Below, piece after piece: positions 1,598 through 46,784 of a stretch of 64,000 nt of DNA (positions within the stretch are counted from its first letter, which is position 1; every line of letters starts with the position of its first letter). Location of the stretch: positions 62,001-126,000 of the forward strand of contig OZ037845.1 in assembly GCA_964035575.1 (NCBI GenBank), given 5' to 3'. Made by a program: the position numbers and the translations under genes. Below the pieces are notes generated by a model. It was not told the origin of the DNA. It saw only the letters and a program-made list of their open reading frames with translations, and did not search any database. The stretch comes from Rhynchopus sp. YZ270_cl-10. Taxonomy: Eukaryota.

Positions 1598-1904
1598 TTT
1601 GTGTGGTAGAGTTGTGAACATTAAAGATAAAAAATAAAACGAAATACCAAATAACGATAAATGGGGATATGTCTTTGTGGGCTTGCGGGTTTGTGGGGTT
1701 TGTTGTCTCAGTTACTTTTTGTTTGTTATTTGTTTTCTTTTCCGTTTTACTCCTCATTTTATTTGTATATTTTGTCAGACACAAAATATCAAAGCACATG
1801 ATACAACAACAAAAAAGGAATAACATATTTTTTCAATAATTCTGAGAACATTTTTATTCATCACCAGTCACTGCATAACAGAAAAACAACACACACCGTA
1901 AACT

Positions 1905-4900
1905 ATGTTTGAAGGGGGATATCAAAATCTCTCTGGCCATATGATAGAAGAAGACTTTGATGACTGCGCCAGAGAGCCCCCATCGAAGGACTGGTCTAGA
2001 TACCTGACTAACATGCGTGAATCTTTGCGTCTCTCAGCTGAAACATCACGAATGCAGTTAGAAGATATAAATTTTTTCTGCAGCCAGTACGAAACACCAC
2101 ACACTCAATATGATGATGTCTGTGAGTGGTGTTTACAGAGATACAACAAAACAAAAAGACATGATCCACATTGTCTCTTCAGGCACATGCACATCACACA
2201 CATTGCAAAATGCCGTCTTGCGTACGTTATTGCTTCTATAAGAACAATAACTAATAAAGCTTTGTTCAGAGATCTCTTCTCTGTACATCCTGAGTTACAG
2301 TCTCGCTGGAACTGTTCTCTTGATTCTCTCACGCATTACGACAAGAAGAAAATCAGATTGCTTGAGGAAGAAAAACGTGATGGCATGCAAGGACTTTCTC
2401 CGTACATTCTTGGATCAATAGAGAACTGTGCAAATGACATATGCAAAAGATGGCTCGAGAAGAGGTCCGATACGCTGAGAACAAACGGGCCCATCTGTCA
2501 AGCATTAGTTGCAGAATTCGAAAATAGGGTTTCTACTTCGGAAATGTGTGGGAGAAGTCTTGACCCAAGCCTCCACTCAGCTGCAATGAAGCTTGAAGAC
2601 TACACAAATGGATGCGTGTCTTATGCTGACATTGGGGGGATGAATTCTGTCTGTAGAAAATGTGGTGCAAAGCTCTTCTCCGGTGAGGTCCGAGGAGAAG
2701 GGAGATATGGAATTTGCTGCAACAGAATCAAGGAGAGAGACATCCCTGCACCAATTGAATTTGAGAACGACGACCACAAAAGGTTGTTCTCGGATCAAAC
2801 GTTTCTTAAGAATTCATACCGCCTGAATTCTTATCACCAGATGGCCAAGGCATTGCATACCCCCCACAAGTTGTTTTCCAACACACGCGGAATACACAAC
2901 ATAGTTGTAAAAGGAAAAGGGGTGAAGAAAATTATGGGCCTATCTGACGATGCGGAAACAAGAAACCAAACCTGGTTTGTTGGTGGATACAACGAGCAGG
3001 ACCGCGCCTTGAAAGGCTTGCAAGAGATGGAGAGGATCCCAGAACTGGAACGCGACACAACCCTCTACCAGGACATCATGACCATGCTGAAAGACAATTG
3101 CTATGTCAGGATGTTCAGGAGAGCCTCAGTTCTGATGGACAGTGCCGAAGAGAATACACATGTGGCCATCAACTTTGACGATCTGCGAGGACCTGAGAAG
3201 ACGGGACGGGAGTACGCAAACGCCGCTGCAGAAGATGAATTGCGTGCTGTATATACTGTCAGTACTGGAACAGATGATCACAAATACGCAGCAGGTTGGG
3301 GCCGGCAGCAGTACAGCGTTATTATGCAGGGAGAAGCTGAAGGTGAAGGTGAAGGAAGCGATAAATACAGCAGAAAGATATCAGATTTTGATGCCAGGTT
3401 CGAGCCACTGTGTTTTCCCCTGATACATGTGTGTCCAAAAGACAGTACAGGTTGGAGACACAGTCGAAAAGATGAAGCAACGCCAAACCCCTACAGTGGT
3501 GTGTCAGCACAGGAGTATGGCTGCTTCCACCTGTTTTCACGGGCGACCGAGAAGAACCCAGATGGAGAACCAGGGCCTGCACTGATAGGGCGCAAGCTGA
3601 CCGAATACTTCTTCCTTCAGCTTGGCATCCGTGCCATTACGCAACGCATATCTTACCACAGCCAGCAGATAGTAAAGAAGTATGCAACAAAAGAATTCCT
3701 TGAAGAGGCCCGTGTTACGACAGTGGTGGAAAACCGTCGCGTCACCACACACGATGCGACCAATGACACTACAACAGCCACCACCACCCTCGATGCCAGC
3801 TACCCGCGTGGTAAGAGAGCTAGAATTCAAGACCTCAACGATTCACTTGCGTTGAAGGCCCGTCTTGGCTGCCCCGATTATTTCCTGACCATGACAGCCA
3901 ACCCACACTGGCCAGAGATTCTCAGGGAGCTGCGTCCAGGAGAAAGACCCTGTGACAGGTCTGATCTTGTGCACCGAGTTTTCAACCTCAAGATGGATCA
4001 ACTTGAGAGAAAGTTGAAAGAGAATGCACTCGGGACGTACCAGGCAATGGTTCGTGTGGTGGAGTACCAGAAGCGTGGACTCCCCCACTTGCATCTTCTT
4101 CTGTGGGTTTCCAAGGAGCATAAGCCGAAGTCTGCAGCCATTTTTGACATGGCGGTGTCGTGCCAGTTGCCTGATCCCGAAACGCAAGAAGAGCTATACA
4201 ACTTGGTGTCGGAGCAGATGATGCACACTAAGTGTGATACTGTGCCCAGTGCGCGATGCAAGGTTCCCGGCCCGGACGGCAACGCACGGTGCAAACAGCA
4301 CTACCCTAAAAACTTTCGGGAAAATACCCTAGCAACTGAGACAGGAATGTACAGCTATGGTATGCGGCCTGAAAATGGGAGAACAAGCGCTGTTGCGGAA
4401 AAAGACCAAGAGCGGGCAAGAAAGCTGGCCACAGAAGGGAAGGTACACCCTAGCTGTAGAGACAACCGCTATGTTGTTTCCTACAACATAGTTCTTCTCA
4501 CCCAGTTCATGAGCCACTTCAACATAGAGGCTGTTGGATCTCCAGTTGTCATCAGATACCTCTTCAAGTATCTGTTCAAGGACGATGAGTATGCTAATGT
4601 GTCAGTTACAGCCAAAGACGGAGAAAAAAACAAAACGGATGAGTGCATGAGCTATCTGTCAGGCATACACATTGGGTCCCTTGAGGCCATTGGATACCTT
4701 CTCGGAACGAAGATGAGATACATTGACCCAAGTGTCACCAGACTTGATGTTCATCTTGCAGGCCAGCAAAGGCTGTACTACTTTCCTGGCAAGGAGGCAG
4801 AGGCGCTTGACAAGGCCACAGACACAACACTCACAGCCTGGTTTGCTGCAAATAGCGACGCAAAACGTGACCCGTCTTCCAAGTACCAGGGAATACAAAC

Positions 4901-7727
4901 CCTGAACTACATCACTGTTCCTGAATACTTTGCCTTCTCCAGAGATAAAGCAGAGTGGACCCTGAGGAAAAGCTACGTGTACTGCCCCAGGACTGAGTCG
5001 CTTGTCACAACAAACAGATCACGAGCTGCAAAGTCCCATCTTCTGGCTATTGGTCGCCTGTACAGAACCCCTGTTTTGGATAAGGAGCTCCAGGCTCTGC
5101 GGACTATCCTCATGGTGAGAAAAGGACCCACTAGCTTTGATGACCTGATGACTGTAGAAGGGAAAAAGTGCGAGTCCTTTACGGATGCAGCAAATGAAAT
5201 GGGGCTCCTTCAGGATGGTGAACTTGTGAAGCTTACACTTGTGGATGCAGTCAAAACCACTGTGTCAGGAAGATGCCTCAGGTTTACCCTTGCTGTTCTA
5301 CTCAACTCCTTTGCTATTCCTCCTAATAACATGAAAGAACTCTGGAAGACATACAAGGTGGAGCTGTGCAAGCGCCCTCTGAAGCAGGGAGAGACTGCAC
5401 CGGATGAGGAGGGTACGGTATCTGAGCAGGAGGAAAATGAAGCACTGTTGGATATTCAGAATGTGTTGAGAAACATTTGTGGGTCAGATGTAAAGCTCGA
5501 AGTCTTTGGACTCCCAACACCAACTGCTGCTATGAGGAGTGCGAACGATGGGGTGTCTTGGGTTATGAAGGATGAAATCTACAACATGGAAAAGCAGTGG
5601 CAGGAGTGGGAGAAGATTGAACCTAAGCTCAATACAAAACAGAGGGAAGCAGTTCAGCGTGTTCAGCTCTCTGTGACTCAGGGCAAAGGTGTCTGCAAAC
5701 TGACAAAAGAAATTGAGGATCTCATCCGCGCAACGGATCTCATTGTCTTTGACGAGGTGGTTATGGCAAACAGGGGCCATATAGAACTTCTCGACAGAAC
5801 CTGCAGAAAGGTGACCGGAAAGGCCATGTGGTTTGGTGGAATCACTGTGGTTCTTGGTGGAGATTTTAAGCAAATTCTTCCTGTCACTGAGGGAGACAAG
5901 AGTGCCACGCTTAAAAATTGTCTGCATACTTCTCCTCTCTTCCAAAACATGACTATGCTGTCCCTTATCGAGATAATGAGGCAGAAGGATGACAAAAATT
6001 GGGCGACCTACCTGGGAACCATTGGCGATGGGTCGTGCAACGATAGAGACGGTTCCATATCTCTCCCAAGAAACCTCTACCGAAAGGATTGTGGGGATTA
6101 TGTTGTACCTGATGACCTCATCACCCACGTCTTCCCTCTGATTGGAGAAGGTGTAGTTGGAAATGGCATGATCCTTGCACCAACTAACAAAGCTCAGAAG
6201 GCAATGAACAACATTTGCCTCAAGAGGCTGTGTGGGAAACAAAAAGAAGTACTCCATGAGTTCCAGCTGACAGGGAAGGACACATGCACAGAGGAGTCTG
6301 TTGAGGGAGAATCTGCCATTGACTCAGACGTGATGAATGCGTACCAGCAGACAGGCATACCTGACCACTGCATCACTGTCAAGGTTGGTGCTCCTCTAAT
6401 GTTGCTTAAAAACCTCAACCCACCAAAGGGTCTCTGCAATGGAACGAGGTTTATTGTGACTGGCGTGACACAGCTCAACATTCAGGGGATAATTGTGGGT
6501 GACCCTAAAAGAGTTGGAACGGCAGTGAACATCCCCAGAGTTAAGAACACTCCTGACGAGAAGAAGGCTGGTTTCAGCATGCAGCGCGTCCAGTTTCCTG
6601 TCGCACTGTCATTTGCCTCTACAATTAACAAGTCTCAGGGACAGACCCTCGATAGGGTTGGACTCGACCTCACAGAGTCACAGTGTTTTGCACATGGGCA
6701 GTTGTACGTTGCTCTGAGCAGATGCCCAAAGGCAGAGCATGTCAAGGTTGCAGTGCCTCTGAAGAAATGGACCAAATCAAACAGAACTATTGTGGAGCCA
6801 TACAGAGTGTCAAACCCTGTCTACAAGGACATGCTGAAATCTGTTGCTGACCGTGGACTCGAGGGCATCTTTATGCAGCTGACTGAAGCAGAAGAGGCCA
6901 TGCTACAGAGTTACCACGTCATGACTGACAAAGAGTACTCTGAACAGACCCACAGACAAGCAAAGATGCCTCCACCATCTGACGACCATAAATTCTGGGA
7001 CCCCATGCCAATGCAGTGCGAGAGCATTCAGTTTGAAGATGCTGAAGATCTTGTCTATGTAGCCAGAAAGAGGAAGAGAGACCCAGAAGATAAGTCTCCT
7101 AAGAAGCGGAAGAAGAATAACCCTACATCAGCAGAAACAACAACAGCACAAAAGCCGAAGCTCTCCATTACCAGGGTTTTGGGGGATGGTACTTGCTTTT
7201 ACCATGCTGTAGACCAGTCTATTACAAAGAGGATAGGACAAGGGAATCAACTCAGAAGAGAATTGGAATTGTTTGTTGTGCAGAACAGTACTACAATAAA
7301 ACATCATCCTCTTATTGTACCTGAAAACGCTAACACCGTATCCTCGATTGTAGGCACCTACAACGCCCTTATGAACAGGATAACTGGAAGGATTGATGGG
7401 ACGTACGCAACATCAGACTATGCAGAACAGATTGAGTTTGCCTTGGTGAGTCTCTTAAAACGTGTTCTCATAACTATTGTCAAAATGAACCAAGATAACA
7501 AGCCCTCATCTTTTCACTTTTTAGGGAACAACTTGTCTACTGAACAAGTTCTTGCTAATATTCCTGCAAAAGACAGGATTATTTTATTACATACTTCAAA
7601 CCCTGATCATTTTAATATTGGTACAGGGTCTCCTGAACATGAATTGGAAACACACAAAAATGGTTTGGAACAATTGCATAGGGGATTTCCCAATGAGATT
7701 TTATATCAAGTTGATTGGGAGTTGTGA
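1905..7727 (+). CDS. Helitron RepHel: Zn motif, HUH Rep, PIF1-like helicase lacking Walker A, C-terminal OTU-like protease
   Basis: CRKCGAKLF..CC; DYFLTMTANPHWPEI; VEYQKRGLPHLH; YLFKYLFK; LIVFDE; GGDFKQILPV; GLCNGTR; TINKSQGQTL; HGQLYVALSR; OTU RVLGDGTCFYHAV...PDHFN. Confidence 0.95.
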   Translation: MFEGGYQNLSGHMIEEDFDDCAREPPSKDWSRYLTNMRESLRLSAETSRMQLEDINFFCSQYETPHTQYDDVCEWCLQRYNKTKRHDPHCLFRHMHITHIAKCRLAYVIASIRTITNKALFRDLFSVHPELQSRWNCSLDSLTHYDKKKIRLLEEEKRDGMQGLSPYILGSIENCANDICKRWLEKRSDTLRTNGPICQALVAEFENRVSTSEMCGRSLDPSLHSAAMKLEDYTNGCVSYADIGGMNSVCRKCGAKLFSGEVRGEGRYGICCNRIKERDIPAPIEFENDDHKRLFSDQTFLKNSYRLNSYHQMAKALHTPHKLFSNTRGIHNIVVKGKGVKKIMGLSDDAETRNQTWFVGGYNEQDRALKGLQEMERIPELERDTTLYQDIMTMLKDNCYVRMFRRASVLMDSAEENTHVAINFDDLRGPEKTGREYANAAAEDELRAVYTVSTGTDDHKYAAGWGRQQYSVIMQGEAEGEGEGSDKYSRKISDFDARFEPLCFPLIHVCPKDSTGWRHSRKDEATPNPYSGVSAQEYGCFHLFSRATEKNPDGEPGPALIGRKLTEYFFLQLGIRAITQRISYHSQQIVKKYATKEFLEEARVTTVVENRRVTTHDATNDTTTATTTLDASYPRGKRARIQDLNDSLALKARLGCPDYFLTMTANPHWPEILRELRPGERPCDRSDLVHRVFNLKMDQLERKLKENALGTYQAMVRVVEYQKRGLPHLHLLLWVSKEHKPKSAAIFDMAVSCQLPDPETQEELYNLVSEQMMHTKCDTVPSARCKVPGPDGNARCKQHYPKNFRENTLATETGMYSYGMRPENGRTSAVAEKDQERARKLATEGKVHPSCRDNRYVVSYNIVLLTQFMSHFNIEAVGSPVVIRYLFKYLFKDDEYANVSVTAKDGEKNKTDECMSYLSGIHIGSLEAIGYLLGTKMRYIDPSVTRLDVHLAGQQRLYYFPGKEAEALDKATDTTLTAWFAANSDAKRDPSSKYQGIQTLNYITVPEYFAFSRDKAEWTLRKSYVYCPRTESLVTTNRSRAAKSHLLAIGRLYRTPVLDKELQALRTILMVRKGPTSFDDLMTVEGKKCESFTDAANEMGLLQDGELVKLTLVDAVKTTVSGRCLRFTLAVLLNSFAIPPNNMKELWKTYKVELCKRPLKQGETAPDEEGTVSEQEENEALLDIQNVLRNICGSDVKLEVFGLPTPTAAMRSANDGVSWVMKDEIYNMEKQWQEWEKIEPKLNTKQREAVQRVQLSVTQGKGVCKLTKEIEDLIRATDLIVFDEVVMANRGHIELLDRTCRKVTGKAMWFGGITVVLGGDFKQILPVTEGDKSATLKNCLHTSPLFQNMTMLSLIEIMRQKDDKNWATYLGTIGDGSCNDRDGSISLPRNLYRKDCGDYVVPDDLITHVFPLIGEGVVGNGMILAPTNKAQKAMNNICLKRLCGKQKEVLHEFQLTGKDTCTEESVEGESAIDSDVMNAYQQTGIPDHCITVKVGAPLMLLKNLNPPKGLCNGTRFIVTGVTQLNIQGIIVGDPKRVGTAVNIPRVKNTPDEKKAGFSMQRVQFPVALSFASTINKSQGQTLDRVGLDLTESQCFAHGQLYVALSRCPKAEHVKVAVPLKKWTKSNRTIVEPYRVSNPVYKDMLKSVADRGLEGIFMQLTEAEEAMLQSYHVMTDKEYSEQTHRQAKMPPPSDDHKFWDPMPMQCESIQFEDAEDLVYVARKRKRDPEDKSPKKRKKNNPTSAETTTAQKPKLSITRVLGDGTCFYHAVDQSITKRIGQGNQLRRELELFVVQNSTTIKHHPLIVPENANTVSSIVGTYNALMNRITGRIDGTYATSDYAEQIEFALVSLLKRVLITIVKMNQDNKPSSFHFLGNNLSTEQVLANIPAKDRIILLHTSNPDHFNIGTGSPEHELETHKNGLEQLHRGFPNEILYQVDWEL

Positions 7728-8533: not shown

Positions 8534-8848
8534 TAGTGGCTTCATCGGAGCCATTGCCTCGACATATGGTGATAGTAAACTCCATGAATCGTAGTATACA
8601 AAAGGTTACTTGGGCAGCTGAAGTCTTTGGGGTACCTGCAGTCGGCCACATACACGATAATACTGCTAAACGTTCATAAATTTTCACACACGCAATAAAT
8701 ATAAACTCCACTTTAGCAACGTGAACTCAAATTCCAATAACTCACCTCACCAACAAGATTCCCTAAGAATAACACAATAGAACATTTTCGATACACCAGC
8801 CCGTAACACATCACACCAGCCTACCACATATGGTTGCTCACTTCTCGT

Positions 8849-9065
8849 GCGGGTTTGCGGGTTTGCGGGTTTGCGGGTTTGCGGGTTTGCGGGTTTGCGG
8901 GTTTGCGGGTTTGCGGGTTTGCGGGTTTGCGGGTTTGCGGGTTTGCGGGTTTGCGGGTTTGCGGGTTTGCGGGTTTGCGGGTTTGCGGGTTTGCGGGTTT
9001 GCGGGTTTGCGGGTTTTGCGGGTTTGCGGGTTTGCGGGTTTGCGGGTTTGCGGGTTTGCGGGTTT
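8849..9065 (+). repeat. (GCGGGTTT)27 tandem array
   Basis: Read directly; one unit has an extra T. Confidence 0.98.
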
Positions 9066-13166: not shown

Positions 13167-13378
13167 AGTTTCTTGAGAAATAGTTCACCTGTTTTTGGTG
13201 TGTGAGTACACAAATGCTATGAAAAGAGAAATGAGGGGTGAGCCAAGTTCAATTCATTTTTCTATTCAATTTTTTCGGCTTTCACATTTGTAAAAATGCA
13301 AAACCTTCATACAATAAAAAAAAATTCTGTTCACAACCACACCAGCCCCTCCTACATTTTAGCGAGCTTTCTTCTAGT

Positions 13379-13477
13379 GCGGGTTTGCGGGTTTGCGGGT
13401 TTGCGGGTTTGCGGGTTTGCGGGTTTGCGGGTTTGCGGGTTTGCGGGTTTGCGGGTTTGCGGGTTTGCGGGTTTGCG
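13379..13477 (+). repeat. (GCGGGTTT)12 tandem array
   Basis: Read directly. Confidence 0.98.
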
Positions 13478-14856
13478 AGAGGGGACCCTGGTGGGTTTGT
13501 TGCCCCGTTGACCAGCAGACGAGACAACGTCTGGCGTGTAACCTCCTAGTCGGCGCATCACCCGGGCTGCTCCACGGAGACAGTGGGTGGTGCGTGGTAC
13601 GGGGACGACAGTCCTCACCTAGCATCCGGAATTCCAGGTATGTCAACACACACTAGCAAAGGACACACAGGGGTGGCTGAGAGGTTGGTGTTTGGTAGTT
13701 GCCAATGGCGGCTTGCTGACGGGGACCTGGACCATCTCACTGGGTGACTGCTGTATCTGCATTGTGTGGTTTTTACTGCACGCTTGTGGCTGCTGTCAGG
13801 GCTATCTACGATGGGTGAGGCGCTTCTTCCGAACGTCTGCAGCGGCTGCGTTGGCCTTCGGGACTTCACGGATGCTGTCGGTACGCTCAGGAGATGTCGT
13901 CCTCCCTGGACCTTGGCTGGGTGTCTGCAGTGACGCACCGGGTGCGTCCACTGTTTGAATCCACAGGGGTGATCCACAGCCACAGAACTGGTCCGTCCAG
14001 GTCAGGGTGTGCCTCCCATGTAAAAGCCCCCATCAAAGACTTCTGTAGCCGCTCCTGTCCGCGTTGGAGTCTGGGTGACCGTTGCAACGGCCTCTAGGGA
14101 GAGAGAGGCCGGTGTAGTCAGGGACTACCCACATGGTGAGCACACTCGACGACTGCAAGCAACTGCACCGCTATTTGCTGCGGTGGTGCCTTTGTGAGCA
14201 GCACTCGTTCGATGTTGTGGCTCACATGTAACAGACTCCGACACTAGTGAGTGGTGACATAACCGCGACGGTTGGGATGTGAACAGGCTAGGCTGGTGAA
14301 TCTGTTAGGGAGTTGTGTCGGATGCATACTTGTGGGGAGTCACTCCCCTGCAGACAGGCGTGACCAACTTGCCGAGCAGAGGTCAGGTCGAGTAATCGGC
14401 TGGCTAACGGTCAAAGATCGCATTGGGTCGGCAGATTCATGCGGTTCAGACCGTCGGTTCCACCTCCGGGCGACTGGAGTGGTCAGCGCGAGCTGGCTGT
14501 GTCCCACCAGTGCGTGAAACCACAAACTGGGACGCATGGGATCGCTACAGACTGGGTCACCAGCCGGTCCTCTCAAGCAGAGGGCTCAATGTACAGTCGG
14601 GCCACAGTGAGTTACACACCCCGCGGACTTCGGAAGTTTCTGTGATACGGAAGAAGCCAACGGGTGGTAGTGAGCTGTGCTCTCGGTGGAAGGGCGTGTC
14701 TGAAAAGGACACAACCAGGAGACCGAGGGGCTGCTGGTCGGAAACACCCCAGGTATGTGTAAAAAGGGTGTAGGACGGCTAGCAGCGGAAAGGTCCTCAG
14801 CCTGACCTGCGCCTCCCCACTTCTTCTTCAGGGGAGGAGGGCAAAGGGGACAAGTG
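13478..14856 (+). ncRNA. 1.38-kb highly structured non-coding segment containing a group I ribozyme
   Basis: No credible ORF; many helices with G-U pairs on the + strand (13553-13563/13585-13595, 13601-13610/13895-13904, 13928-13953, 14089-14110, 14193-14226, 14334-14348). Confidence 0.75.
14252..14600 (+). ncRNA. Group I intron catalytic core (subgroup ID-like)
   Basis: P3 UGGUGAC 14252-58/GUCACCA 14556-62; P4 GACGGU 14267-72/ACCGUC 14450-55; P6 GGUUCCA 14456-62/UGGGAUC 14537-43; P7 C(A)GACUG 14548-54/CAGUCG 14594-99 with bulged A and G-binding G-C pair; P8 14566-86; J8/7 CAAUGUA. Confidence 0.88.
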
Positions 14857-17800
14857 ACCTGCAGCAGCACCGACAGCAACAGCAACAGCAGCAGCAGCAA
14901 CTGCAGCAACAACACTGTAGGTGGGGGTGAGCGAGGTATGCTGGTGTTCGGGGCCAGCCTTGCGGGGCGAGAAGGACAGAGTTACTGTGTGACGTTACGG
15001 GTGTGGGGGACCTTTATCACCCCCAATGTTCACATGGGGCGTGCAGAACATGGGCTTGGGTTTGACTGGTGGAGCATCCTTTGGGAACGCCTTTCTTCTC
15101 TGCGCCGACCAGACCCCCGCTGGGTAGCCGAGGCACCTGAGTGGGGTGTGTTTGTGTCTTTCGCGGTCCTGGACATGTGGAAGGACAGACGCGCCCCTAC
15201 CCTCAGTCACCTCATATTGTGGCTGGTGGGTAGGAGGGGGACCAGGAGGACGCGCCGAGGTCACAGGTCCTTGAACTGGACCAAGGCACAGGCGAGCAGG
15301 TTCCGTCGGCGCAAGGCGCCATGCAAGCGTCCGCCCTCTCAACTTTTCCGCAGGATAAGGGCAGCCGTTGTGAGAGTGGCTTTGCAGTGGGTGGCCATCT
15401 GGGCTCTGGTTTGCGTGGGGTATGAGCTTGGGAGATCGGCGCCACGGGCTTTGGGTTGTGCACTGATCCGGGACGCAGAGCTGCTGAGTGTGCTGCTGAG
15501 GAAGGGGCTCCTACAGGGCCGATACAGAGCACGTAGCGGGAGGCTGTGGTTGCGAGTACTTGCCAGCAGGGTGTGGGTTTTCATGCAGAGGTTGAGGCGA
15601 CCGGCGGGGACAGGGGACGGGTGGGAGCTGTCACCTCAGAGCATAAGCCTGGGGCCCGGGGCGCTGGCAGGTGGAGCAGACGGGGACATCAACCCGGAGG
15701 AGGCGGCAAACCTTGACGCATTCCTCGAGGTGCATGGGGGGAAGAGGGTGCCGAACGCAGCCAACGGCGAGTGCATGTACGTGGCCTTACTGGGTAAGAA
15801 GAACGCGCTGTACTTGGATGTCAGCAAAGCACGCACTGAGCTGGCTGACAGAGCGCGGGTCACGAAGGTGAAGACCGGTCTCAGACGCTACTTCGAGACC
15901 GAGGCACAGCTGTCAAGCTTCATTGACGGCCTCACCAACCCTGAGGTGTGGGGCAACCACCTCACCCTACACCTGGCAGCAAATGCATGGTCCACCACGA
16001 TAGCGGTAGTGCAGCCTGGGCCGAATCCAGTGGTGACGATCAACCCCGCAGCCTCATCGAAAGACTTGCGGACGCAGAAAGACCGCCGCGTCAGGGTAGT
16101 TTCACTCCTCAATAATCACTATGAGGAAGTGCAAATGGACCCAAAGAACGCCCTGGCAATGGTCCAGTCGGCCCCCTTCGCAGAAAGGCCTAACAGCAAC
16201 ACCCATCCCTGCCATGACGAAGGAGTCGCCTTCTCCTCTGGGGGCTGATGCACCGAGGCTCTTCTGCCCTGTTCCGTGTTGCAACGGAAGCAGTCTACAC
16301 CGTCCCCAGCCCTTCTCTGTTCCCGGCCTGCGCACACACATCGGTGCACACCTGTCTTCCGGCGACCACATCCCCCACGACACCCTCAACAAGTTGGGGT
16401 TAGGACAGTGTGAAGCGTGTGGGGGGATACGGTCGGCATCGAAGGAGACATGTCTTCAGTGTGCGAAACTGGTAAAGGCGATCGCAAAGCCCACACCCAG
16501 GGAACGCACCGCAGTGGAAAAGGCAGACGACGTTGACTTGCCGGAGTGGTGGGAGATAGCTCAAATCCCCATCAGGACAACAGATGCGATCCCCACGAGC
16601 ATCGACCGTCCAGCCGCTGTGGAGTTCACCCAGGCACTTGAGGATGTGGCCGCAGTTGGCGATGAGGCAAGCTGGAAACGTTTGTGCATGTTCGCGAAGC
16701 TGGTCCTACCGGCGAAGCGAGGTGGGAAGCACCTCAAGACGAAGGTGGCAGTCTTGCGGCAGAAGGATGTGGATGAGTGGAGAGAAGGTGAGATCGCAGC
16801 AATGTGGCGAGCAGCTGCGAATCGCACAGGCGGTACGAAGAAGGAGAAGGAGCGGAAGGAACCAACGTGGGAAGAAAGGGAGAAGGCGATGGTCCGGGAG
16901 GTGCGGAATGGGAGGATGGCAGCAGGGATGAGCCGCCTCCACAAGGGTGGGCTGGCAGAGCGTACTGAGGAATCCACAGACATCCTCCGCAGAAAGCACC
17001 CCCATGAGGAACCCCAACCTGCCACTTCTCTGCCGGAAATTGCTTCCGAGCCGCTGAAGCCGATCGCCGCCCTCAAAGCCATAAATAGCATGGCAAAGGG
17101 CTCTGCTCCAGGTCCCTTTGGTCTGCGCGGGGATCACCTCAAGGGGTGGATGGTCAAACACCCGGACCTGAACATCTTGCCACTGATGACGCAAGTCCTG
17201 GACCTGCTGCGACGCGGGAAAGCCCCCTCCGAGACAGCTATGTTCATGGCAGGAGCTACTCTGGTGGCGTTAAAGAAGGGTGACCAAGGCGACGTCCGCC
17301 CCATCTCTGCAGGCAACACACTTCGGCGAGTCGTGAGCAAGATCGAGGTGGCGTCTGTGAGGGAAAAGGCACGAGGAGTGCTGCTGCCAGGGAGACAAGT
17401 TGGGGTGGCGGTGGACGGTGGACTGGAAGCGGCGACAATGGTTGTGGCAGCATACGCAAAACGACACCAGGGGAGCGACAAAGTGATCGTACAGATTGAC
17501 TACGAGAACGCATTCAACAGCATCTTTCGCAAGACTTTTCTGGAAGCCACAAGGAAATATCTCCCGTCCATTTCACCGTGGGTCGAATGGTGCTACAACT
17601 CCCACACCGGGCTAGTGTATGGTGACGAGATGATCCCATCCACCAGAGGCGCGCAGCAAGGCGACCCCGCAGGGCCCCTACTCTTCTCCCTGGGGATCAA
17701 AGCACTGACAGACGAAGTGCGTGCAGTCCAGGGCATCGACTGTAGCATCTGGTACCTCGATGATGGGACGATCATGGGGAACCCAGAGGCGGTGGCTCGA

Positions 17801-20119: not shown

Positions 20120-20450
20120 AAGGGCCTCGCGATTGGTTGTGATTGTGGTTTATGTGGGCACTGTTGCCCTTCCCTTCTCTGTTAGTTTCCCCCACCCCAA
20201 CTTTTGTGTGTAGCAACACCTGTTTAGTTCCCTGTTTCCTTTTTACCCCCAACCCCTCCCATTAGATACATGTGTGTAATCCCCCTGGTGTCAAGCCCCT
20301 TGTATGTAAATTCCAAATCTTCCCCCTCACAGAAAACGTCAGGAGTAAGCCAAGGAGGCGGTTTGTCTGTGGGCGTCGGCCTAGGAGTAAGCGACGGAGA
20401 TTTTTTCCCCCACCCCATCCCCTACACCATGGACTCGTAATGACATTACG

Positions 20451-20700
20451 TGACGAGGGACGAGGGAAATTACGTGGGAAATTACGCGCGCAATGACGTC
20501 GTCACGACGCGGGCACCCCCTCGTAATGACGACGTCATGACGTGGGGTTTTCCTCGTCACGACGACGGCATTACGACGTCATGACGAGGGGTGCCCTCGT
20601 AATTACGAGGGGACCCCTCGTAATTACGAGGGGTGCCCTCGTAATTACGAGGGGGTGCCCTCGTAATTACGAGGGGACCCCTCGTAATTACGAGGGGTGC
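20451..20700. repeat. Left subterminal palindromic repeats (CCCTCGTAATTACGAGGG and CGTCATGACG variants)
   Basis: About five tandem palindromes at 20594-20697; same motifs at the right end. Confidence 0.9.
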
Positions 20701-21385
20701 TCCCGTGGTCATTGTCTGGCTATTGCCTCCCAGGGAAAGGGACTCTCGAATTTTTTTTTTTGCCCCTAGAAAGGGCTAATTTCGACGATTTGAGGCCATT
20801 AAAAGCAAAATTTGATGCTTTTGAGCATCTGTGGGGGTCTAAAACGCGTTTTTGCGGTTTTTTTTCCTCCTTCCCCCATATTTTTCTTTACCGACTACTT
20901 TGGCTCAGCATAAAAAAAATTTTAAATAAAGGTCGAGATTTAGGTAGTGGCCAAGTAAAAGAACACAATTTTTTAATGGACCATCTGGGGGTACACAAAT
21001 ACGCAGTTCTCCTCTCAAAAACCACGGATATTTTACGATATCCTGTGTCCATTATAATACCGTAATCGTAAGAATTCTGGGACGTAACAAATCTGGGACA
21101 ATTGGGAAAAAATCTGAAACTTGGGACATTTTTACGTCCCAGCTTTTTACGATTACGGTATACCATGCAAAAAAGATTGTCCCCCTCCTCCCCCCCCAGT
21201 AGAGAAAAGAAGAAGAAAAAGACAGTTTCTGAGATATGTCTCATCTGTTTTTGATTCATGGCCAATTCTGACCGAATTGCCCTCGGTACGGCGACATCAT
21301 CCTTTTCGGAAAGTTCTCACTCCGTACTGCTTGTCTTTGCGGCGGTATCCTTCTTCCTTTTGTTCTGTCGTAGTCAGTCGGCGTT

Positions 21386-21528
21386 CTTAGTTCCTTAGTT
21401 CCTTAGTTCCTTAGTTCCTTAGTTCCTTAGTTCCTTAGTTCCTTAGTTCCTTAGTTCCTTAGTTCCTTAGTTCCTTAGTTCCTTAGTTCCTTAGTTCCTT
21501 AGTTCCTTGGTTCCATAGTTCCTTAGTT
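21386..21528 (+). repeat. (TAGTTCCT)n 8-bp array, about 17 units
   Basis: Read directly, just upstream of transposon ORF1. Confidence 0.97.
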
Positions 21529-21604
21529 TCTCAGTATTCTTTTTTGTGGTTGTTTACATTTAAACACACAACAGGATTACACAAAACCTCTCTCTCTTTC
21601 CACC

Positions 21605-22789
21605 ATGCCGAGAGTACCTAAGAAGAAGGCACCCAAGGCTCCGGCGAAGAACGGGCCGTCGACGCCTCTCCCTCAGTCCCCACCTGCGACCTCGCCCACC
21701 GATCAAGTGCCAGTTCCCGTCCTTCTCGCGACGCCACCCACCTCCAACCCTTCTTCCCAGACGAGCACCCCTGCGGGGAAAAAGTCGAGTGGTGATACTG
21801 GTACCCCCCTGCAGCGTGCTTTTTGTGAAATTTTTTTAATTCACCACGAGAAGAACACCCTCACCCTCCCCAAGCTCGCTGTTCTGTTCAACCGTTTGTT
21901 CGACAAAGTGTGCCAAGGGCCGCAGATGTCGAAGGCGGTGGCAGCGCGGTTCACGGACTGGCAGGGTCACCTCCAGCAACGTGAGGTGAACCAGCTCAGC
22001 GAGGCCAACAAGCAACTCCCGCGCGCTATTCGTGTGGGGGCAACGACATTCGTTAATGTCGGCTTGCGGGACACCCTTGCGTCGCTCGCCACTGGCCAGC
22101 ACACCAACGCTTTGCAAATCGTGCGCAGCGCTGCCGAAACGGCAGGAAAGTCCGAGGAGCTGCAGGGCCGGATGACGGTCTTGTATGACAAGACACACGG
22201 CGCATCGGCACCCAACACTGAACAGCCTGCATCTTGCAAACGGCCCCTCATCCCGTATCCTCCTCAGAGCGTTTGCGGGGCGAACATGAGGGACGGACAC
22301 CAGGTCTTTTCCGTTTTCTATCTAGTGGGGCCCAATGTCACTATTCAGGAGTGTTCGCTCTCCGGGTCAGAGGTGACACTCTCCATTCTGAGAAACTGCA
22401 AGTTCCAGGGGGAGCTGCAGAACGGAAAGTACCGTTTCTCTTACTGTGTCCCCCCTGACCACGCCATCGACCACACTCGTCTGCCCGAAGCGGCGCTTGA
22501 CGGAGCGATGCTCCTCGTGCATGTTCCCTTGATTTCCCTGGCCGCCCCCAAGCAGGCCATCCTCAGCACTACCGCGTTCGACTACAACGTGGTACTTCCC
22601 CCCGAAGCCGCCCCAACCGTGGCACCGGTGGTTCTGCATACGCCAGAGGGAGAGGGAGAGGGCGAACAGGACCCGGCCAATCAAGCGGATGAATCCGATG
22701 AAGAGGGTGAGGGTGCAGTACATGGTCAACTAGATGATCTTGGGTTCATGTCGATGTCAAGCTTTTCTGTGCAGGTTCAGAAACCCTAG
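21605..22789 (+). CDS. Transposon accessory protein (394 aa): basic/Pro-rich N-terminus, helical domain, putative alpha-crystallin/HSP20-like domain, acidic tail
   Basis: GKYRFSYCVPPDHAID..LPEAALDGAMLLVHVP resembles the ACD C-terminal pattern F.R.F.LP..VD....A.L..GVL.I.VP. Confidence 0.7.
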   Translation: MPRVPKKKAPKAPAKNGPSTPLPQSPPATSPTDQVPVPVLLATPPTSNPSSQTSTPAGKKSSGDTGTPLQRAFCEIFLIHHEKNTLTLPKLAVLFNRLFDKVCQGPQMSKAVAARFTDWQGHLQQREVNQLSEANKQLPRAIRVGATTFVNVGLRDTLASLATGQHTNALQIVRSAAETAGKSEELQGRMTVLYDKTHGASAPNTEQPASCKRPLIPYPPQSVCGANMRDGHQVFSVFYLVGPNVTIQECSLSGSEVTLSILRNCKFQGELQNGKYRFSYCVPPDHAIDHTRLPEAALDGAMLLVHVPLISLAAPKQAILSTTAFDYNVVLPPEAAPTVAPVVLHTPEGEGEGEQDPANQADESDEEGEGAVHGQLDDLGFMSMSSFSVQVQKP

Positions 22790-23058
22790 CCCGTGTCTAA
22801 GTTCTGCATCATTTCTATGGTGTTAAAATTCCCTGTTCAAGTCCCCTTTCTTAATTAATATGTCCTTTTTCTGTCACTTTGACAAGAGAAAAACGCTTTT
22901 TTGTCTTACCTTTACACACCGCAAAGTAAAAGAAGTCTTCCCAACTCCCTCGAGCTTTGATTATATTCCAAACTCCACTCACTCTCCTCTAACTCCCACA
23001 ACTGTTTGCAACACACACAGACCTGTGACACACGTTTTCATTTTTTTTTTTTTTTTAA

Positions 23059-24655
23059 ATGAAATGCAAGAGGGCAGACCCCGAGAGGCAGCGTGAGAAG
23101 CAGAGGGCCCGCACCCTTGGAGACGCGCTGCTCCGTGCGCGCTTACGCCACGGCCTCAGTCGCCACTGCATGGCAAAGCTTGCCCGCGCGATGCACGAGG
23201 CAAACCGCGCAAAGGGCCTCGCTCCTGTGCAGTTCGGTTTGTCTCGCAGCACGATCGCGAAGAGGGAGAGGCTCCTCCAGGCTCAGGCATGGAGGCTGCA
23301 GCAGAACGTGATGCAGGTCACGGCGTTTCTTCTTCGTCGCGTCCCTCGTGTCGCGTTCACCCCTCCGAGCAAGCTCGAGAAGTGGCCCATCACCTCCCTC
23401 CTCAGCATGGACGGCTACACCCCGCGGAACTCCTTGCGTACGAGAAATGCGCGCTTTCGGATGGCTGTGTGCCTACAAGCCGGAGCCTACGGCACCAGCC
23501 CCCTCACCATCATCGATGTCCCGAAGTCGGCGTTCAAGGGCATTGACCTGGGCACGCTTCTCGCTGCATCGCAGCAGACGGTGTACCGTCTGGAGCAAGA
23601 CGGGGGTATTGTGTTCCGGATCCCTATTAATAGGGTCGGTGGGGATCACGCGGAGCTCTGGGTGTTGTTCAAGGGGATGGGAGGAAGGGGTCACAGGAGT
23701 GCATTTTGCTGTACCCGCAGCGAGGATTGGCTCTCCACTTTGCACTCGTGCAAGCGCTGTTCGATTCAAGAGCTCAGCGCACACTTCCATTGCCCCCTCG
23801 CAGCCCACCTCCACACTCCTGCGTACACGGTGACCCCCCCCCCTCCACGACATCAAGGGCATCATCACCATGCTCCTTCATGTCCACTCGGGAGGACCAT
23901 CCGCCATAAAGGATGTCCTCGGGGTGGATTCGTTACAGAACGTGACCACCTCTCTGTGCCGAACAATGTTGGCGCAGCTGCTTGAGGCAGAAGCACCCAC
24001 CGACCCAGAGAGACTTGCTTGCGTGGCAGTTGAGTGCCTGGTCGCCTTTCGGTACCAGGATATCCCCATTCGATACCACGTATCCGGCACCAACGGTCAT
24101 GAGTTCGTGGCCAGTCTCCTTGCGTACCACGTCCTCATATTCGTGTTTGAGTGGTGGTTGCCTGGGTCGACCTGGCACAAAGGTGGTACGTACTTTCATA
24201 GTGCGAATCACTGGTTCGACGTGGAGGATTGCCAACTTTTTAGTCAATCCGATGAAGCGTTCGAGAGGGAGAACGGAGAGCGGAAGCGTCGTGCGTGCGT
24301 GGTCGGTCCCGCCACTTACGAGCGCGACCAGCTCATGTTTGAGATTGCGAACCTGCCCAATAGAGGATTGAGTGTGCTGCCTATGGAGCGTGAGTGCATT
24401 GCGTGGGGATACGACTCTTTCGCTCCTTTCTGCCGTTCGTGTGTCTGCAAGGGTGATTGGGGGAAGCGGCTGACGGCACTGCGTTCCAGACTGGTTTCCT
24501 TCGGCTTCTCACACTCGAGCGCGAGAGATGACGACTTTTGTTATCTTGGCTCTGATCTCCGGCAACGCAGAAACAAGTCCATGCGCGTTTGTGTTTGTGA
24601 CGCGACCAAGGTGAAGTTTGACGCCAAGGTTAAGAAGGCGTTTAATTTGAAATAA
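23059..24655 (+). CDS. RAG1/Transib-like DDE transposase (~531 aa after removing one C from the C10 run at 23834-23843)
   Basis: LLSMDGY (D1), VGGDHAEL..GMGGRGHRSAFCC (D2 and Zn ligands), PPLHDIKG, TYFHSANHW, SDEAFERENGERKR (E); compare RAG1 SCDG, GYDEK, ALHCDIG, NYFHKTLAHV, ASEGNESGNK. Confidence 0.85.
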
Positions 24656-26130
24656 AAGAGATAAATACTTGTGTGCCTCGTATGCGAGGAGAGGTCTCTT
24701 CCGAGCCCATTGTCGCACCCTTTGACCCCGTTACACCAGATTACACCCCATTACACCTGAATTTCCTCGTGGCCAGTACACCCATTATCGAGTCATGGTT
24801 TCAGTTCCCGTAATTTTGCTCTTTTTTTAAATTTTTTCAATTAAAAAATGTCGTCACGAAGATAAAATTTTTTGTACCTTCTGTGCCTGCGTCCCTGAGG
24901 CGTTTGCACTATCAACTTCACCTTTTTTTTTTTTTTGTAAATCAAGCTACTTGACAATGGACATAGAAACGACGGAGGGTGCGTGCCCGCCAGCTTCACT
25001 CATTGTTCTTTCTTCATAGTTCAGCAACAAAAGAATGGGGTAATATTTCTTGTTTTTTTCTGTTCCTTTTTCCACCACACCTCCAAAAACACCCTCACAG
25101 GATGACAGTATACAAAAACATGATAAACGATGAAAACCCGCAACTCTACGCCACAGGTTCTTTCTTCCTCTGGGAAACTCTTTGTCAGTCACTGCTATAG
25201 CCATTTAACCCAGGGAGCATAGCTAGTGCAAGAAATTCGACTTCGGGATCCGGAAAGTCTGTCCTCTGCTCTTGCGGAGGACTAGGCACAAGAAAATATT
25301 GCGTTCCCCCAGGAAACTAATTTTTGTCACAGTAATTTTTGCCCAGGGCATGCTCTTGAAGCATGGCGGCTTGGTGTGAGAAGGGGCAGTGTGTTGTTTT
25401 GTTCTAGATTTCAACGGTTGTTAGAACGAGTCAAGTGGATGCTTATCTAAACACTGACTTTAGTACAGACCCGAGAGATCACACATGACTTTGAGGAAAG
25501 AACAAAGCAATGCATCTGTACCCGCACGCCAGGTTGTAGTTACTTCAGAATTTTCTTAAGTTTGCGCGAAAGAGAGCGGGGGCAACTCCTTTGTATCATA
25601 AGCCCGCTGTGCAGAACAAAGCGAGGAACCTTAAAACACTACCTGCGTGGTGGCTGAATTCACATCCCTTAGAATTACCAGAATTCAGCCTTTGTTGAAG
25701 TAACGTACATACTTGTATGTGCGTGTCACGCTTCTCCATCCTTAAATGGGTGCACTGCTTCACTGCAGCGGGTAAGCCTCTCTCGACTAGTGCAAACTTA
25801 AGAATTTTCTGCTGTAACTTACCAAAATCGATTTTCTTTCACCCCAAACACCCGCAACACCCCACCTGCTACTTCGGTAGCCTGTGTTGTTGGGAGTTGG
25901 TTCTCATGTTGATCCCCAGTGTTTTGCACTGCTTCTTCTGAGCCCAACGCTGTTTGGCCTGTCGACGTAATAAATACGAAGACAGGGCGGCGGTGCCAAC
26001 AATTTTCCGATGATGTAACGTTTTATCTGATTGATTTATCGTTTGATATACCTTGTGTGTGCTACTTCATGCACACCCAAGCAAGGTATATTGAACGGTA
26101 CTTTCAAGCGATACTTCGTTATGTCATTGG

Positions 26131-26438
26131 GGGTACCTGGGTACCTGGGTACCTGGGTACCTGGGTACCTGGGTACCTGGGTACCTGGGTACCTGGGTAC
26201 CTGGGTACCTGGGTACCTGGGTACCTGGGTACCTGGGTACCTGGGTACCTGGGTACCTGGGTACCTGGGTACCTGGGTACCTGGGTACCTGGGTACCTGG
26301 GTACCTGGGTACCTGGGTACCTGGGTACCTGGGTACCTGGGTACCTGGGTACCTGGGTACCTGGGTACCTGGGTACCTGGGTACCTGGGTACCTGGGTAC
26401 CTGGGTACCTGGGTACCTGGGTACCTGGGTACCTGGGT
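26131..26438 (+). repeat. (GGGTACCT)38 8-bp array
   Basis: Read directly; abuts the right subterminal repeats. Confidence 0.98.
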
Positions 26439-26443
26439 GCCCA

Positions 26444-26577
26444 CGTCATGACGACGTCATGACGAGGTAATTACGAGGGGGTGCCCTCGTAATTACCTCG
26501 TCATGACGAGGGCACCCCCTCGTAATTACGAGGGGGTGCCCTCGTCAAGGCACTCGTAATTACCTCGTCATGACGCG
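26444..26577. repeat. Right subterminal palindromic repeats of the DNA transposon
   Basis: CGTCATGACG and CTCGTAATTACGAG motifs matching the left end. Confidence 0.9.
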
Positions 26578-27121
26578 CGTAATGTCATTACGAGTCCATG
26601 GTGTACGAGTTCCATGGGGGGTCGCTACTGGCGTTAATCATCCAAACAAAAAAGACTACAAGAGACAAAACAAAAGTAACAAGAAAGGAACTTCGTATTG
26701 TAAAAAGAAAGCCCCATCCCGCCCCTTCCTCCCCTCCAGAACCAGCTGGGCACCAATACTGGAAATACAGCAAAACCACACAGACTGGACAGTCTATATT
26801 CTCCCCTGCCTCTCCCGTGTTAATGTTCACCCCTCCTTTATCCCAAATTGTCATAGAGCTAAATATAGTTGTATGCCTCGCTTCGCTCGGCAAACAACGA
26901 TACATAATAGGGCGACATGCTGATGACAAATATCTCCCTCGTTTAATTCACTTTTGTGCCTCGTTCTAACTAAACCGGCACATGTACTGATTGTAAGACT
27001 TTTGGCCCTCACTTCGCTCGGACCAAGCGCCTTTCATGTGCATTATAAACGTACCCCCCTTGCCCTGTCCAGTTTGATGTGGAACAAAAAAAGTCGAGCC
27101 TAGGGCTAAGTTGAACAACAC

Positions 27122-27170
<49 letters not shown>

Positions 27171-35249: not shown

Positions 35250-35296
<47 letters not shown>

Positions 35297-35305: not shown

Positions 35306-35368
<63 letters not shown>

Positions 35369-36770
35369 CGCTTTTTTTTATCTACATCCAGTGACAGAGG
35401 GGGTACTTACTAGTCAAGCGAGTATGTAAACAGCTAGATGTCCAGACAAGGGCACTTTACTATTGTACTGGCAAGACAGTGCCTGAAAACACAGTTAGTG
35501 GCACTAAAATAGAAAGCATGTGGGACAACTACAACCAACACTTCCCTGCAAATAAGCAAAAGGGTCGTATGTGAGTGCAATTTTTCCCAAAAGGAAAAGG
35601 GGAGGGGATGGGACGGGAGGGTTGCTCTGTCTACCGGTGTAGTTTTATTTTGCTTTGTCTTGGGGAGGGGAGGGGAGGAGAAGGAGGGGATTGAGTGAGC
35701 CGTTTCCTCTGTACCACACAAACAAATAAAAAGGAAGTTCCATAATCTTTTTAGTAGTTTTCTTTTTGGTGAAAATTATTGAGAACTTCTGTAAGTGTGA
35801 CCTGACCCGACTGACTGACACCCAAAGGGGAAAACAACAATAACGCACAACAAAATCAACAACAACAATGGTGGGTCTCGTGCTTACCTGTGGTGGTTTT
35901 GAAAAATGAAAAATGAAATTGACCTTCACAAGGTAAAAATGAAAAACTAAAGGAGTGAAAAAAGGAACTCAAAGGACAAGAGTTCTGTACAAACTCTACT
36001 CTACTGCACAATCTATAAAAGTGGCCCAATGGCTCCTGATGCCACTGGCCTGGCTCTTAGACAGGTCTTACTCCGAGACTGCCCTCTACCCTCGTCCAAG
36101 GGCTAAGGGCCGTCGCTGGGGTAGACCCGTCCTAGCCAGCAGCCAACCAAAACTATTAACAAAAGGAAGGGGAAAGGAAAGGGGGGGGGGCATGAAAAGA
36201 ACAAAAAACACAAAATAAAAAGGGTTTTTAAAAATAAACATGGGGCAAACTGTCATTCTCTACACGCATCTACACACACACTCTCTCCCTCTAACTCTCA
36301 CTCTAATGCCTCTTATTCCTCTTATTCCCCTTTTGCCCCTGCTTTCCTCCGCTCTGTCTCCCCTTCTGTCCACCACCGCGACCATTGCGCCCTCTCTGCA
36401 CCACCTGGGGCGAGAGCACATGCTGCGTCGCTTGTGCCACTGCGTCGGTGAACACGTTCGACGTGTTGGACCTACCCTGAGCTGCATGGCGCTGGGGTCC
36501 TTTGGGAGCTGGGGAAGGAGCAGGTTGGGCGGAGGAGGTTGCATTGCCACGGCCTGCCGATGAGGAGGAGGAAGAAGTGGAGACTGCAGGTTGGGCGATG
36601 GAGGTTGTAGTGCCACGGCCTGCAGAGGTGGAGGAAGAAGAAGAAGAAGAGGAGGCTTGAGGTTGTCGGCCTATTCCCTCTCGAGCCGCTCGTGCCTCAT
36701 TCTCCCTCCTTGTACTCTCCGCTGCAAAGGCCTGCCCCCTACTGCTCCGGTTGTCCGTCAGGGCATGCAA
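35306..36770 (-). mobile_element. 5'-truncated 1.4-kb copy of CRE family B with 14-16-bp TSD
   Basis: Poly(T) 35306-35368; near-identical to 36883-38295; flanked by (AA)CCTGTAAAAGTCAT at 35291-35306 and 36769-36784. Confidence 0.9.
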
Positions 36771-36804
36771 CCTGTAAAAGTCATATGGGGCATACTTTTG
36801 CGCC

Positions 36805-46616: not shown

Positions 46617-46653
46617 ACCCTATTTCGGGACCCCCAAAAAGCCCCCTGTGCAC
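37836..46653 (-). CDS. CRE-B polyprotein (Ser/Asn repeats, TM-like segments, OTU1, Zn finger, RT, RLE, OTU2, Zn finger, coiled coil) with two 1-bp frameshifts
   Basis: ORFs 42685-46653, 42632-42877 and 37836-42725 join if one base is restored at ~42895 and at ~42726; IDYRNAFN, QQGDPLGP, WYLDDG, RHNALRD, RPGDV, FEAFGG; NDCGYVAL..SHFE; GDCAFEAL..WAD..GHYEPL. Confidence 0.88.
45550..46616 (-). repeat. Hierarchical Ser/Asn-coding repeat with a 564-bp internal duplication
   Basis: GTTGGAACTGCTG units; 45624-45914 is repeated at 46188-46478. Confidence 0.92.
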
Positions 46654-46784
46654 CCTTTTTCAGGGGTGAAATGCCCCCTGTGCACCATATCCAAAACCAC
46701 TTCCGGGAGGTTTCGGGAGGGTTTCAGGAACCAAAAAAAGCTGCCCCCTGTGCACCTTAGATACCTAGGCGCCCCCTGTGCACC
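46641..46784 (+). repeat. Four dispersed 14-bp repeats GCCCCCTGTGCACC
   Basis: At 46641, 46673, 46743 and 46771. Confidence 0.9.

Follow-up and report, generated by a model that had tools for sequence, protein, structure and literature searches.

A putative subgroup ID group I intron joined to a CRE/SLACS-type retrotransposon in Rhynchopus

Features of the locus

The window, a 64,000-nt stretch from Rhynchopus sp. YZ270_cl-10 (assembly GCA_964035575.1, contig OZ037845.1, positions 62,001 to 126,000 of the forward strand), carries two copies of a CRE/SLACS-type retrotransposon without long terminal repeats (non-LTR), the first of which (copy 1) is directly preceded by a block assigned here to the group I introns of subgroup ID (Table 1; positions are those of the window). 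The analysis presented below concerns the junction between this block and copy 1, and we lean towards the interpretation that the intron, whose last base is likely G14856, was joined to the element at the RNA level by the first step of reverse splicing, the product then being copied by the CRE reverse transcriptase.

The host was classified as a CRE/SLACS non-LTR retrotransposon on the basis of its predicted reverse transcriptase, which contains an RVT_1 domain and has its best named matches in SLACS of Diplonema papillatum (36-38%); poly(A) is found at 27123-27169 in copy 1 and at 35251-35292 in copy 2. Copy 1 belongs to CRE family A, which has 72 cluster members. Copy 2, which carries no intron, opens with a predicted fold resembling the hepatitis delta virus (HDV) ribozyme, matched weakly and below threshold by the Rfam model RF00094 (14.9 bits), and the predicted cut site of this fold is the first base of copy 2, 27171, directly after the poly(A) of copy 1. 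The 3' untranslated region of copy 1 contains a 6.2-kb insertion (20426-26603) with terminal inverted repeats, a TA duplication, palindromic subterminal repeats, two 8-nt arrays and three open reading frames (ORFs) without Pfam matches, and it was recorded as an unclassified DNA transposon. A second CRE family, B (187 cluster members), lies at 37836-46660 and 35308-36771, in both cases on the minus strand; it includes a Ser/Asn repeat of 1 kb, its interrupted 5' end lies beside a 13-nt tandem array, and the CRE copies cluster end to end.

The junction between the intron and copy 1

Alignment of the two copies places the start of their identity at 14857 (28352 in copy 2), from where it extends at 99.8% over 5,135 aligned columns. 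Immediately before the junction, copy 1 carries G and copy 2 carries C, and the 8-mer TGACCTGC occurs at 14803-14810 and 14855-14862 and at no third place within 13400-15000. The start of identity, the differing base and the two 8-mer sites had been noted in an earlier examination of the letters alone (the sequence-only reading), which took the junction for the 3' splice site (G|ACCUGC) of a ribozyme that may have reverse-spliced onto CRE RNA, with template switching at the 8-mer as the alternative. The alignment bears out the features themselves. The alternative, in contrast, is excluded, because a switch at the 14803 repeat would have deleted 14811-14856, which is retained. The repeat by itself is only modestly unusual, a junction-spanning repeat of at least 8 nt within 60 nt having arisen in 3% of the deletions simulated in copy 2 (47 of 1,500). 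The same reading had correctly located CAGGT at 13635 and CAGGTCA at 13998. CAGGT is frequent in the block (four instances versus 1.6 expected; CAGGTCA, one versus 0.09), and hence these two upstream matches carry no weight; their suggested role as partners in helix P10 was abandoned, since neither is placed like the P10 guide of homologs and the guide sits ~20-30 nt upstream of 13476, in a part of the intron that the window copy lacks. In addition, copy 1 shows two deletions, one of 11 nt with 2-nt microhomology and one of 802 nt with 1-nt microhomology.

Identity and fold of the intron

The block at 13476-14856 is identified by its predicted core as a group I intron of subgroup ID, in agreement with the ribozyme premise of the sequence-only reading, although Rfam misses it. 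A pattern derived from the two P7 strands retrieved at least 120 metagenome stretches, and a looser pattern 71 viral stretches; the fetched stretches look mostly mitochondrial, with low GC content and transfer RNA, ribosomal RNA (rRNA) and group II neighbors (20 loci scanned). A covariance model built from 47 fetched cores, the window being excluded, matched 14396-14603 with 57.8 bits (E = 1.3e-12), the next match reaching 11.9 bits. The P7 words of the model match by construction, since the homologs were fetched with them, whereas the P4 and P6 motifs do not. The P3-P7 pseudoknot, P4, P6 and P8 occur in order (9/9, 6/6, 7/7 and 8/8 pairs), the P7 motif is the one that predominates in subgroup ID according to passages of PMC8971849, and the P9-P9.2 layout is homologous to that of loci L020, L191 and L194. 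The J3/4 linker, 1 nt long in 89 of 111 cores, measures 106 nt in the block; a shorter hairpin lies between P3 and P4 in L014, and hairpin insertions are found there in a few homologs.

No Rfam match was obtained in the window at the gathering score, and nothing relevant at E = 10 in 13400-15000 or 14400-14700. RF00028, however, also matched none of the cores in the 20 loci scanned out of 119 metagenome loci, and the Rfam blank for the window is therefore uninformative. As RF00028 misses the ID cores in all 20 scanned loci and in the window, ID introns are likely under-annotated, and more cases may be overlooked. The longest stop-free frame of the intron spans 128 codons, and none of its five longest frames matches Pfam at E = 0.1, with no endonuclease detected.

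Other identities were tried and rejected. An HDV-like fold at 13545 was dropped, the stretch being the 5' domain of the intron. The lariat-capping ribozyme GIR1 is at odds with the lack of an RF01807 match and with a P9 domain of 205-257 nt, which is not the short P9 with branch point of that ribozyme. Finally, neither an intron mobilized by a homing endonuclease gene nor an IStron agrees with the lack of an internal endonuclease or transposase ORF (0/5 frames in Pfam).

Other copies and the ends of the intron

Additional copies of the intron were reached through run contigs (X) and predicted proteins (P). The block is present in 12 runs from 8 studies, none of those listed being an RNA run, a result that does not bear on expression. 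In all four independent runs compared it is near-identical, and before 13476 it shows a common loose end, not the (TGCGGGTT)n array of the window. Because the four runs share this other sequence, the window copy is 5'-truncated. X9 and X10 cover parts of the core only, short of the junction. The (TGCGGGTT)n arrays at 8848-9065 and 13378-13477 are telomere-like, and in protein P0094 that repeat is found at another place, joined to a broken stretch of CRE family B.

At the other end, the X1 and X3 contigs match the window through 14857 and then present three and two other letters, respectively, followed by a CAG/CAA tail; the last 31-mer of the X3 contig begins exactly at G14856. The antisense peptide P0200 leads from the 5' end of one intron through eight Leu and one Phe to the 3' end of a second intron, the spacer measuring 27 nt provided that the gene model is unspliced; its Phe codon requires purine-A-A at 14856-14858. 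Judging from these records, G14856 is the last base of the intron in the copies seen, at least two different 3' flanks follow it, and ACCTGC belongs to the window copy alone. The sequence-only reading had proposed this alignment as a check, and held that copies running past 14856 would point to a random breakpoint; the other copies share one further base and then differ, with AA and CAG/CAA repeats following G14856. Its splice site is thus retained in part, in that G14856 acts as the intron's 3' terminus, but ACCUGC is not a conserved 3' exon, the other copies reading G|AA. G14856 is probably the 3' end also in that three homologs end in AAGTG with P9.0 shifted by one base, as G14856 would require. 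As a separate observation, the two introns of P0200 (on a 1.15-Mb ENA contig) have a head-to-tail arrangement, at an apparent distance of 27 nt, which could reflect nested insertion or unequal crossing-over.

The guide was defined independently of the junction. In the three homologs with resolvable P1 (L020, L144 and L045; the automatic splice-site finder resolved 3 of 12), a 6-nt guide directly before AACAGG pairs with the 5' exon in every case, and the corresponding place in the family of the window intron reads GCTGCT in four of four runs, with GGGTA preceding. In two antisense proteins from two ENA contigs (P0107 and P0200), poly-Leu corresponds to CAG/CAA repeats whose last base, 54 nt upstream of 13476, is a pyrimidine; such a CAG-type repeat ahead of the intron fits the predicted guide pairing. 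Helix P1, with the guide paired to the 5' exon, is present in other copies and truncated off the window copy. At the position of the U in the U-G pair of the 5' site, other copies are read as a pyrimidine and the copy-2 site has C (AGCAGCA occurs 28 times in copy 2, AGCAGTA never).

Intron records were found on at least four ENA contigs, which may include the window's own or duplicates; hence there are several copies. The depth of intron contigs is near that of CRE family A (9.3 versus 10.3 in X1; ~2,500 versus 4,259 in X6), which suggests tens of copies, with the reservation that depth does not equal copy number. The copies differ at 3 of 89 antisense codons, consistent with recent spread. 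The peptide search behind P0107 and P0200 gave one useful match among 112, the rest being mostly repeats, and one of nine window ORFs is on record. Antisense peptide searches, confined to near lengths, returned no further copies (no match in one, only P0107 in the other), and the repeat peptides of the other copies' flanks had no match among stored proteins. A diverged paralog of the intron was observed in X3 and X6 contigs (14507-14686 and 14764-14824), at a depth of ~100 versus 3,500 and with the core and 3' end kept.

The guide target in copy 2

The six bases that precede the junction position in copy 2, AGCAGC, complement the guide perfectly, and the ACCT after them pairs with GGGT provided that one base is bulged out. 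Across 8,080 positions of copy 2, AGCAGY lies upstream of 33, AGCAGY|A is found at 28 and AGCAGY|ACCT at a single one, which is the junction; a wobble-tolerant rule for P1 plus P10 is passed by four. Within the 931-nt repeat region the corresponding counts are 27, 26 and 1, so that the P1 match alone is a 3% event. Since the junction lies at a codon boundary, the Ser/Asn frame would be restored by excision. The ACCT that follows G14804 would pair with this guide too, a better account of the 8-mer repeat than the CAGGT sites offer, and G14804 may be an ancestral splice site.

Homologs and likely donor lineage

Over its first 150 nt the intron aligns to a 5' domain that is present in 8 distinct loci of the 194. 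Hosts of this domain include Rpb1 and Rpb2 genes, five of the eight loci are IMG/VR records, and one precedes an ORF read as a giant-virus major capsid gene; L020 and L045 appear to be of viral origin. Introns of giant-virus genes are put forward as the likely donor lineage. Those in RNA polymerase and capsid genes (L020, L144, L045, L194) share with the window intron the 5' peripheral domain and the P9-P9.2 layout, but they sit in single essential genes, with U-G and a clear P10, whereas the window intron is multi-copy and on a retrotransposon. Passages of PMC5871332 report group I introns in giant viruses, e.g. Bodo saltans virus. Scans for the intron family gave one chance 21-mer in GTDB and 0 and 7 chance matches in viral contigs, and no CRE relative was found in the viral contigs. 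In L020 itself (1790-2700), two group I introns interrupt an Rpb1 gene, and the exon between them, located within the catalytic motif, appears to be 9 nt long.

Mitochondrial ID introns of fungi and algae (partial text of PMC8971849) resemble the window intron in their P7 motif and in the motifs and spacing of P3, P4, P6 and P8 (47 homologs). They differ in that the window intron is GC-rich, lies in a nuclear repeat-rich region, reaches 1.4 kb through ORF-less insertions, has no homing endonuclease, targets a repeat and would form C-G at the 5' site of the copy-2 target. Many IMG/VR contigs among L121-L190, classed as viral, carry up to ten ID introns each and, at ~30% GC, have a fungal-mitochondrial look.

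Table 1. Coordinates of the predicted intron, its structural elements and the associated retrotransposon features
Start	End	Strand	Feature	Evidence or remark
13378	13477	+	(TGCGGGTT)n array upstream of the intron	joined to truncated intron over 2-nt overlap (13476-13477)
13476	14856	+	Predicted group I intron, subgroup ID, 5'-truncated	predicted full length 1,435 nt; first 54 nt (P1 + guide) absent; no recognizable ORF
13535	13624	+	5' peripheral domain as in giant-virus-type ID intron subfamily	alignment; nhmmer E 8.5e-10 (5-locus profile, window row dropped)
13625	14280	+	~650-800 nt insertion between 5' domain and P3, absent in homologs	motif-to-core 1,002 nt vs 186-202 nt (4 homolog rows)
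14291	14299	+	P3 5' strand	9/9 Watson-Crick with 14557-14565; letters unlike homologs, pairing kept
14301	14405	+	~105-nt two-hairpin insertion between P3 and P4	gap 106 nt vs 1 nt in 89/111 cores with good P3 pairing
14407	14544	+	P4 (14407-12/14449-54), P5, P6 (14455-61/14538-44), three-hairpin extension	P4 6/6; P6 7/7
14548	14599	+	P7 (14548, 14550-54/14594-99) with G-binding site, P3 3' strand, P8 (14566-73/14579-86)	
14603	14786	+	P9 (14603-08/14674-79), P9.1 (14680-87/14722-29), P9.2 (14730-40/14776-86)	P9.2 11/11
14804	14804	+	Rival or ancestral omega-G	good P9.0 (14600-02 with 14800-02), then ACCT
14812	14837	+	7-bp hairpin ahead of 3' end	similar stretch kept in diverged paralog
14856	14856	+	Likely omega-G	intron 3' end in all copies seen
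14857	27169	+	CRE/SLACS-type copy 1, family A body to poly(A)	11-nt + 802-nt deletions, 6.2-kb insertion
27171	27343	+	HDV-like ribozyme fold, 5' end of intron-less copy 2	P1 7/7, P1.1, P2 7/7, P3 3/3, C-containing J4/2
27171	35292	+	CRE/SLACS-type copy 2, full length	junction reference
28346	28357	+	Empty target site in copy 2, AGCAGC|ACCTGC	codon boundary of Ser/Asn-repeat frame

A model for the origin of the junction

The intron identity and fold, the common 3' boundary with a different flank, the guide with its match to the empty site, the poly(A) end and the 5' truncation are established by the analysis. From them we infer catalysis, excision at G14856 and the following order of events. 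The excised intron, ending in G14856, would bind family-A RNA via its guide at AGCAGC|ACCT, and its 3' G would be ligated to the downstream part of that RNA, which is the first step of reverse splicing. The product, consisting of intron, body and poly(A), would be a ready template for target-primed reverse transcription by the CRE reverse transcriptase, which would have stopped 54 nt short of the 5' end of the intron-plus-body RNA. Two coincidences, the left break at a boundary common to the family and the right break at the best guide site, are what ribozyme chemistry would directly produce, and a copy beginning 54 nt from the 5' end of the intron is expected if the template began there. With respect to the original proposal of reverse splicing onto CRE RNA, the position of the junction on the best predicted guide target of CRE speaks for it, the reaction itself is deduced, and G14804 stays a rival splice site.

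The likely donor is a multi-copy family bearing the same intron as the 5' end of a mobile element in CAG/CAA repeats. Contigs start 58 (X1), 58 (X8), 53 (X6) and 49 nt (X3) before 13476, in all cases at most 5 nt from the predicted 5' splice site, and they extend past G14856 by 61 (X1) and 30 nt (X3); upstream DNA therefore seems to vary, with downstream DNA fixed. Whether the intron constitutes the 5' terminus of a mobile family landing in CAG repeats or an ordinary intron at one host site appears evenly balanced on these sequences. Slow second-step splicing would allow the ribozyme to be retained in the element. A broader scenario, which we regard as plausible but tentative, is that a retrotransposon family captured a giant-virus-type intron as a 5' module that cuts the element RNA from read-through transcripts at CAG repeats, a task for which the sister family would use the HDV-like ribozyme, and that the excised intron reverse-splices onto other CRE families and is fixed by their reverse transcriptase, the window being a fossil of the full pathway.

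Several observations weigh against the reverse-splicing interpretation. Regarding the 3' end, P9.0 is better at G14804 (three Watson-Crick pairs) than at G14856 (two pairs, shifted), G14804 lies directly after P9.2 as in the closest homolog, L020, and the G|AA copies are essentially without P10 (~1 bp versus 4 bp in the window copy); moreover, P0200 may be a spliced gene model, and the X3 boundary could be the mere start of a repeat. Regarding the target, AGCAGY|A recurs often within the Ser/Asn region (at 26 of its 931 positions, and up to ~8% of in-frame positions), the P10 register with its one bulged base was picked after ACCT was known, and the empty site gives C-G, not U-G; in Tetrahymena, according to part of PMC1891724, a U-G to C-G change makes P1 undocking ~80-fold faster. 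Regarding the fold, folding may be impeded by the 105 nt inserted between P3 and P4, and two bases of the P7 3' strand are altered in the diverged paralog, where no compensating change is seen, the partners lying too near the contig ends. DNA repair has also acted on copy 1, as witnessed by its two further deletions with 1-2 nt microhomology, one of which has a 9-mer repeat ~105 nt away, and a contig with the window-type junction was not seen in X1 or X3, leaving a single event.

Non-LTR reverse transcriptases switch templates, and a template switch or an ectopic recombination between the repeat tail of the intron family and the Ser/Asn repeat of family A could have joined the two even with the intron and its 3' end being real. 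Both elements have in-phase CAG/CAA repeats, and X3 and the window agree at 7 of 9 letters over 14858-14866. Such a crossover, however, must fall on the first base of a tail of at least 60 nt, keeping none of it, with 1 nt of perfect homology, and must also land on the single best guide site, and we consider it unlikely.

Synthesis-dependent microhomology-mediated end joining offers a route in which a broken TGA end was extended by CCTGC on 14803-05 as priming site and then paired with the ACCTGC of a family-A element. The 8-mer would then be explained without splicing, as a direct repeat that spans the junction 52 nt from its template; ACCTGC occurs twice in the copy-2 Ser/Asn region (four times in the element), once after AGCAGC, and the two other deletions in copy 1 are in keeping with such repair. 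Yet the 8-mer arises in 3% of random deletions anyway, and the route requires either a family-A body downstream of the intron tail or the join of two elements, whereas the five family-A proteins that reach the repeat, among the 15 of 72 members listed, all have copy-2 type 81-nt repeats. This origin is accordingly judged quite improbable.

A similarly small chance, if anything a smaller one, is given to G14804 as the true 3' splice site, with 14805-14856 as 3' exon and the junction at 14856/14857 unrelated to splicing. P9.0 and a 4-bp P10 would form there in every copy, and its place after P9.2 is that in L020, L144 and L045; were the intron excised at this site, however, two in-phase repeats would be separated by 52 nt of non-repeat sequence and the frame would shift, and both different 3' flanks begin after G14856. 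That the intron is a decayed viral or mitochondrial relic, carried passively and with no catalytic role, is very improbable: its large insertions, the C-G at the 5' site and the paralog with altered P7 would suit a relic, but all core helices are fully paired with family-specific letters, the guide matches the flank, and the 3 of 89 differing antisense codons indicate recent spread.

Relation to known systems

HDV-like ribozymes are found at the 5' ends of R2, L1Tc and related non-LTR elements. There, a 5'-end ribozyme would cut the element from a read-through transcript, and copy 2 has such a fold at 27171; the window intron, in contrast, has a group I fold, would cut by guanosine addition and can also ligate. 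GIR1 is a group I-like ribozyme placed upstream of a coding region, as in the window, but it has a short P9 with a branch point, whereas the family of the window intron has a full splicing-type P1 and a long P9 domain. Passages of PMC3679873 place nuclear group I introns only in rRNA genes and describe evidence for a complete reverse-splicing pathway as lacking, and parts of PMC8395846 and PMC9223047 state the same confinement and the same gap. In the model for nuclear ribosomal DNA introns (PMC3679873, in part), spread at the RNA level is proposed to proceed by reverse splicing and subsequent reverse transcription, as it is here; the difference is that the RNA hosting the window intron encodes its own reverse transcriptase. 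An endonuclease-free, multi-copy ID intron on such an RNA would make the whole pathway, integration included, directly testable.

Group I introns joined to mobile elements are described as IStrons in a portion of PMC3073962, and in nuclear-integrated endogenous polinton-like viruses, with 44 in cryptophyte elements, in a portion of PMC12220804. The partner in these systems is a DNA element or a virus, whereas that of the window intron is a non-LTR retrotransposon. Among the listings of open-licence literature searched, no group I intron carried by a non-LTR retrotransposon came up, and the passages of PMC12621601 and PMC8557442 contained nothing relevant. The window intron would represent a new ribozyme class at retrotransposon 5' ends and points to virus-to-host ribozyme transfer, a novelty tempered by the introns already reported in nuclear-integrated viruses in the excerpted text of PMC12220804.

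Other elements of the window

Beyond the CRE elements, the window contains a Helitron Rep/PIF1 ORF at 1902-7727 (plus strand) and, at 49012-56946 on the minus strand, a 2,644-codon ORF for a cysteine-rich, secreted-looking protein with no Pfam match.

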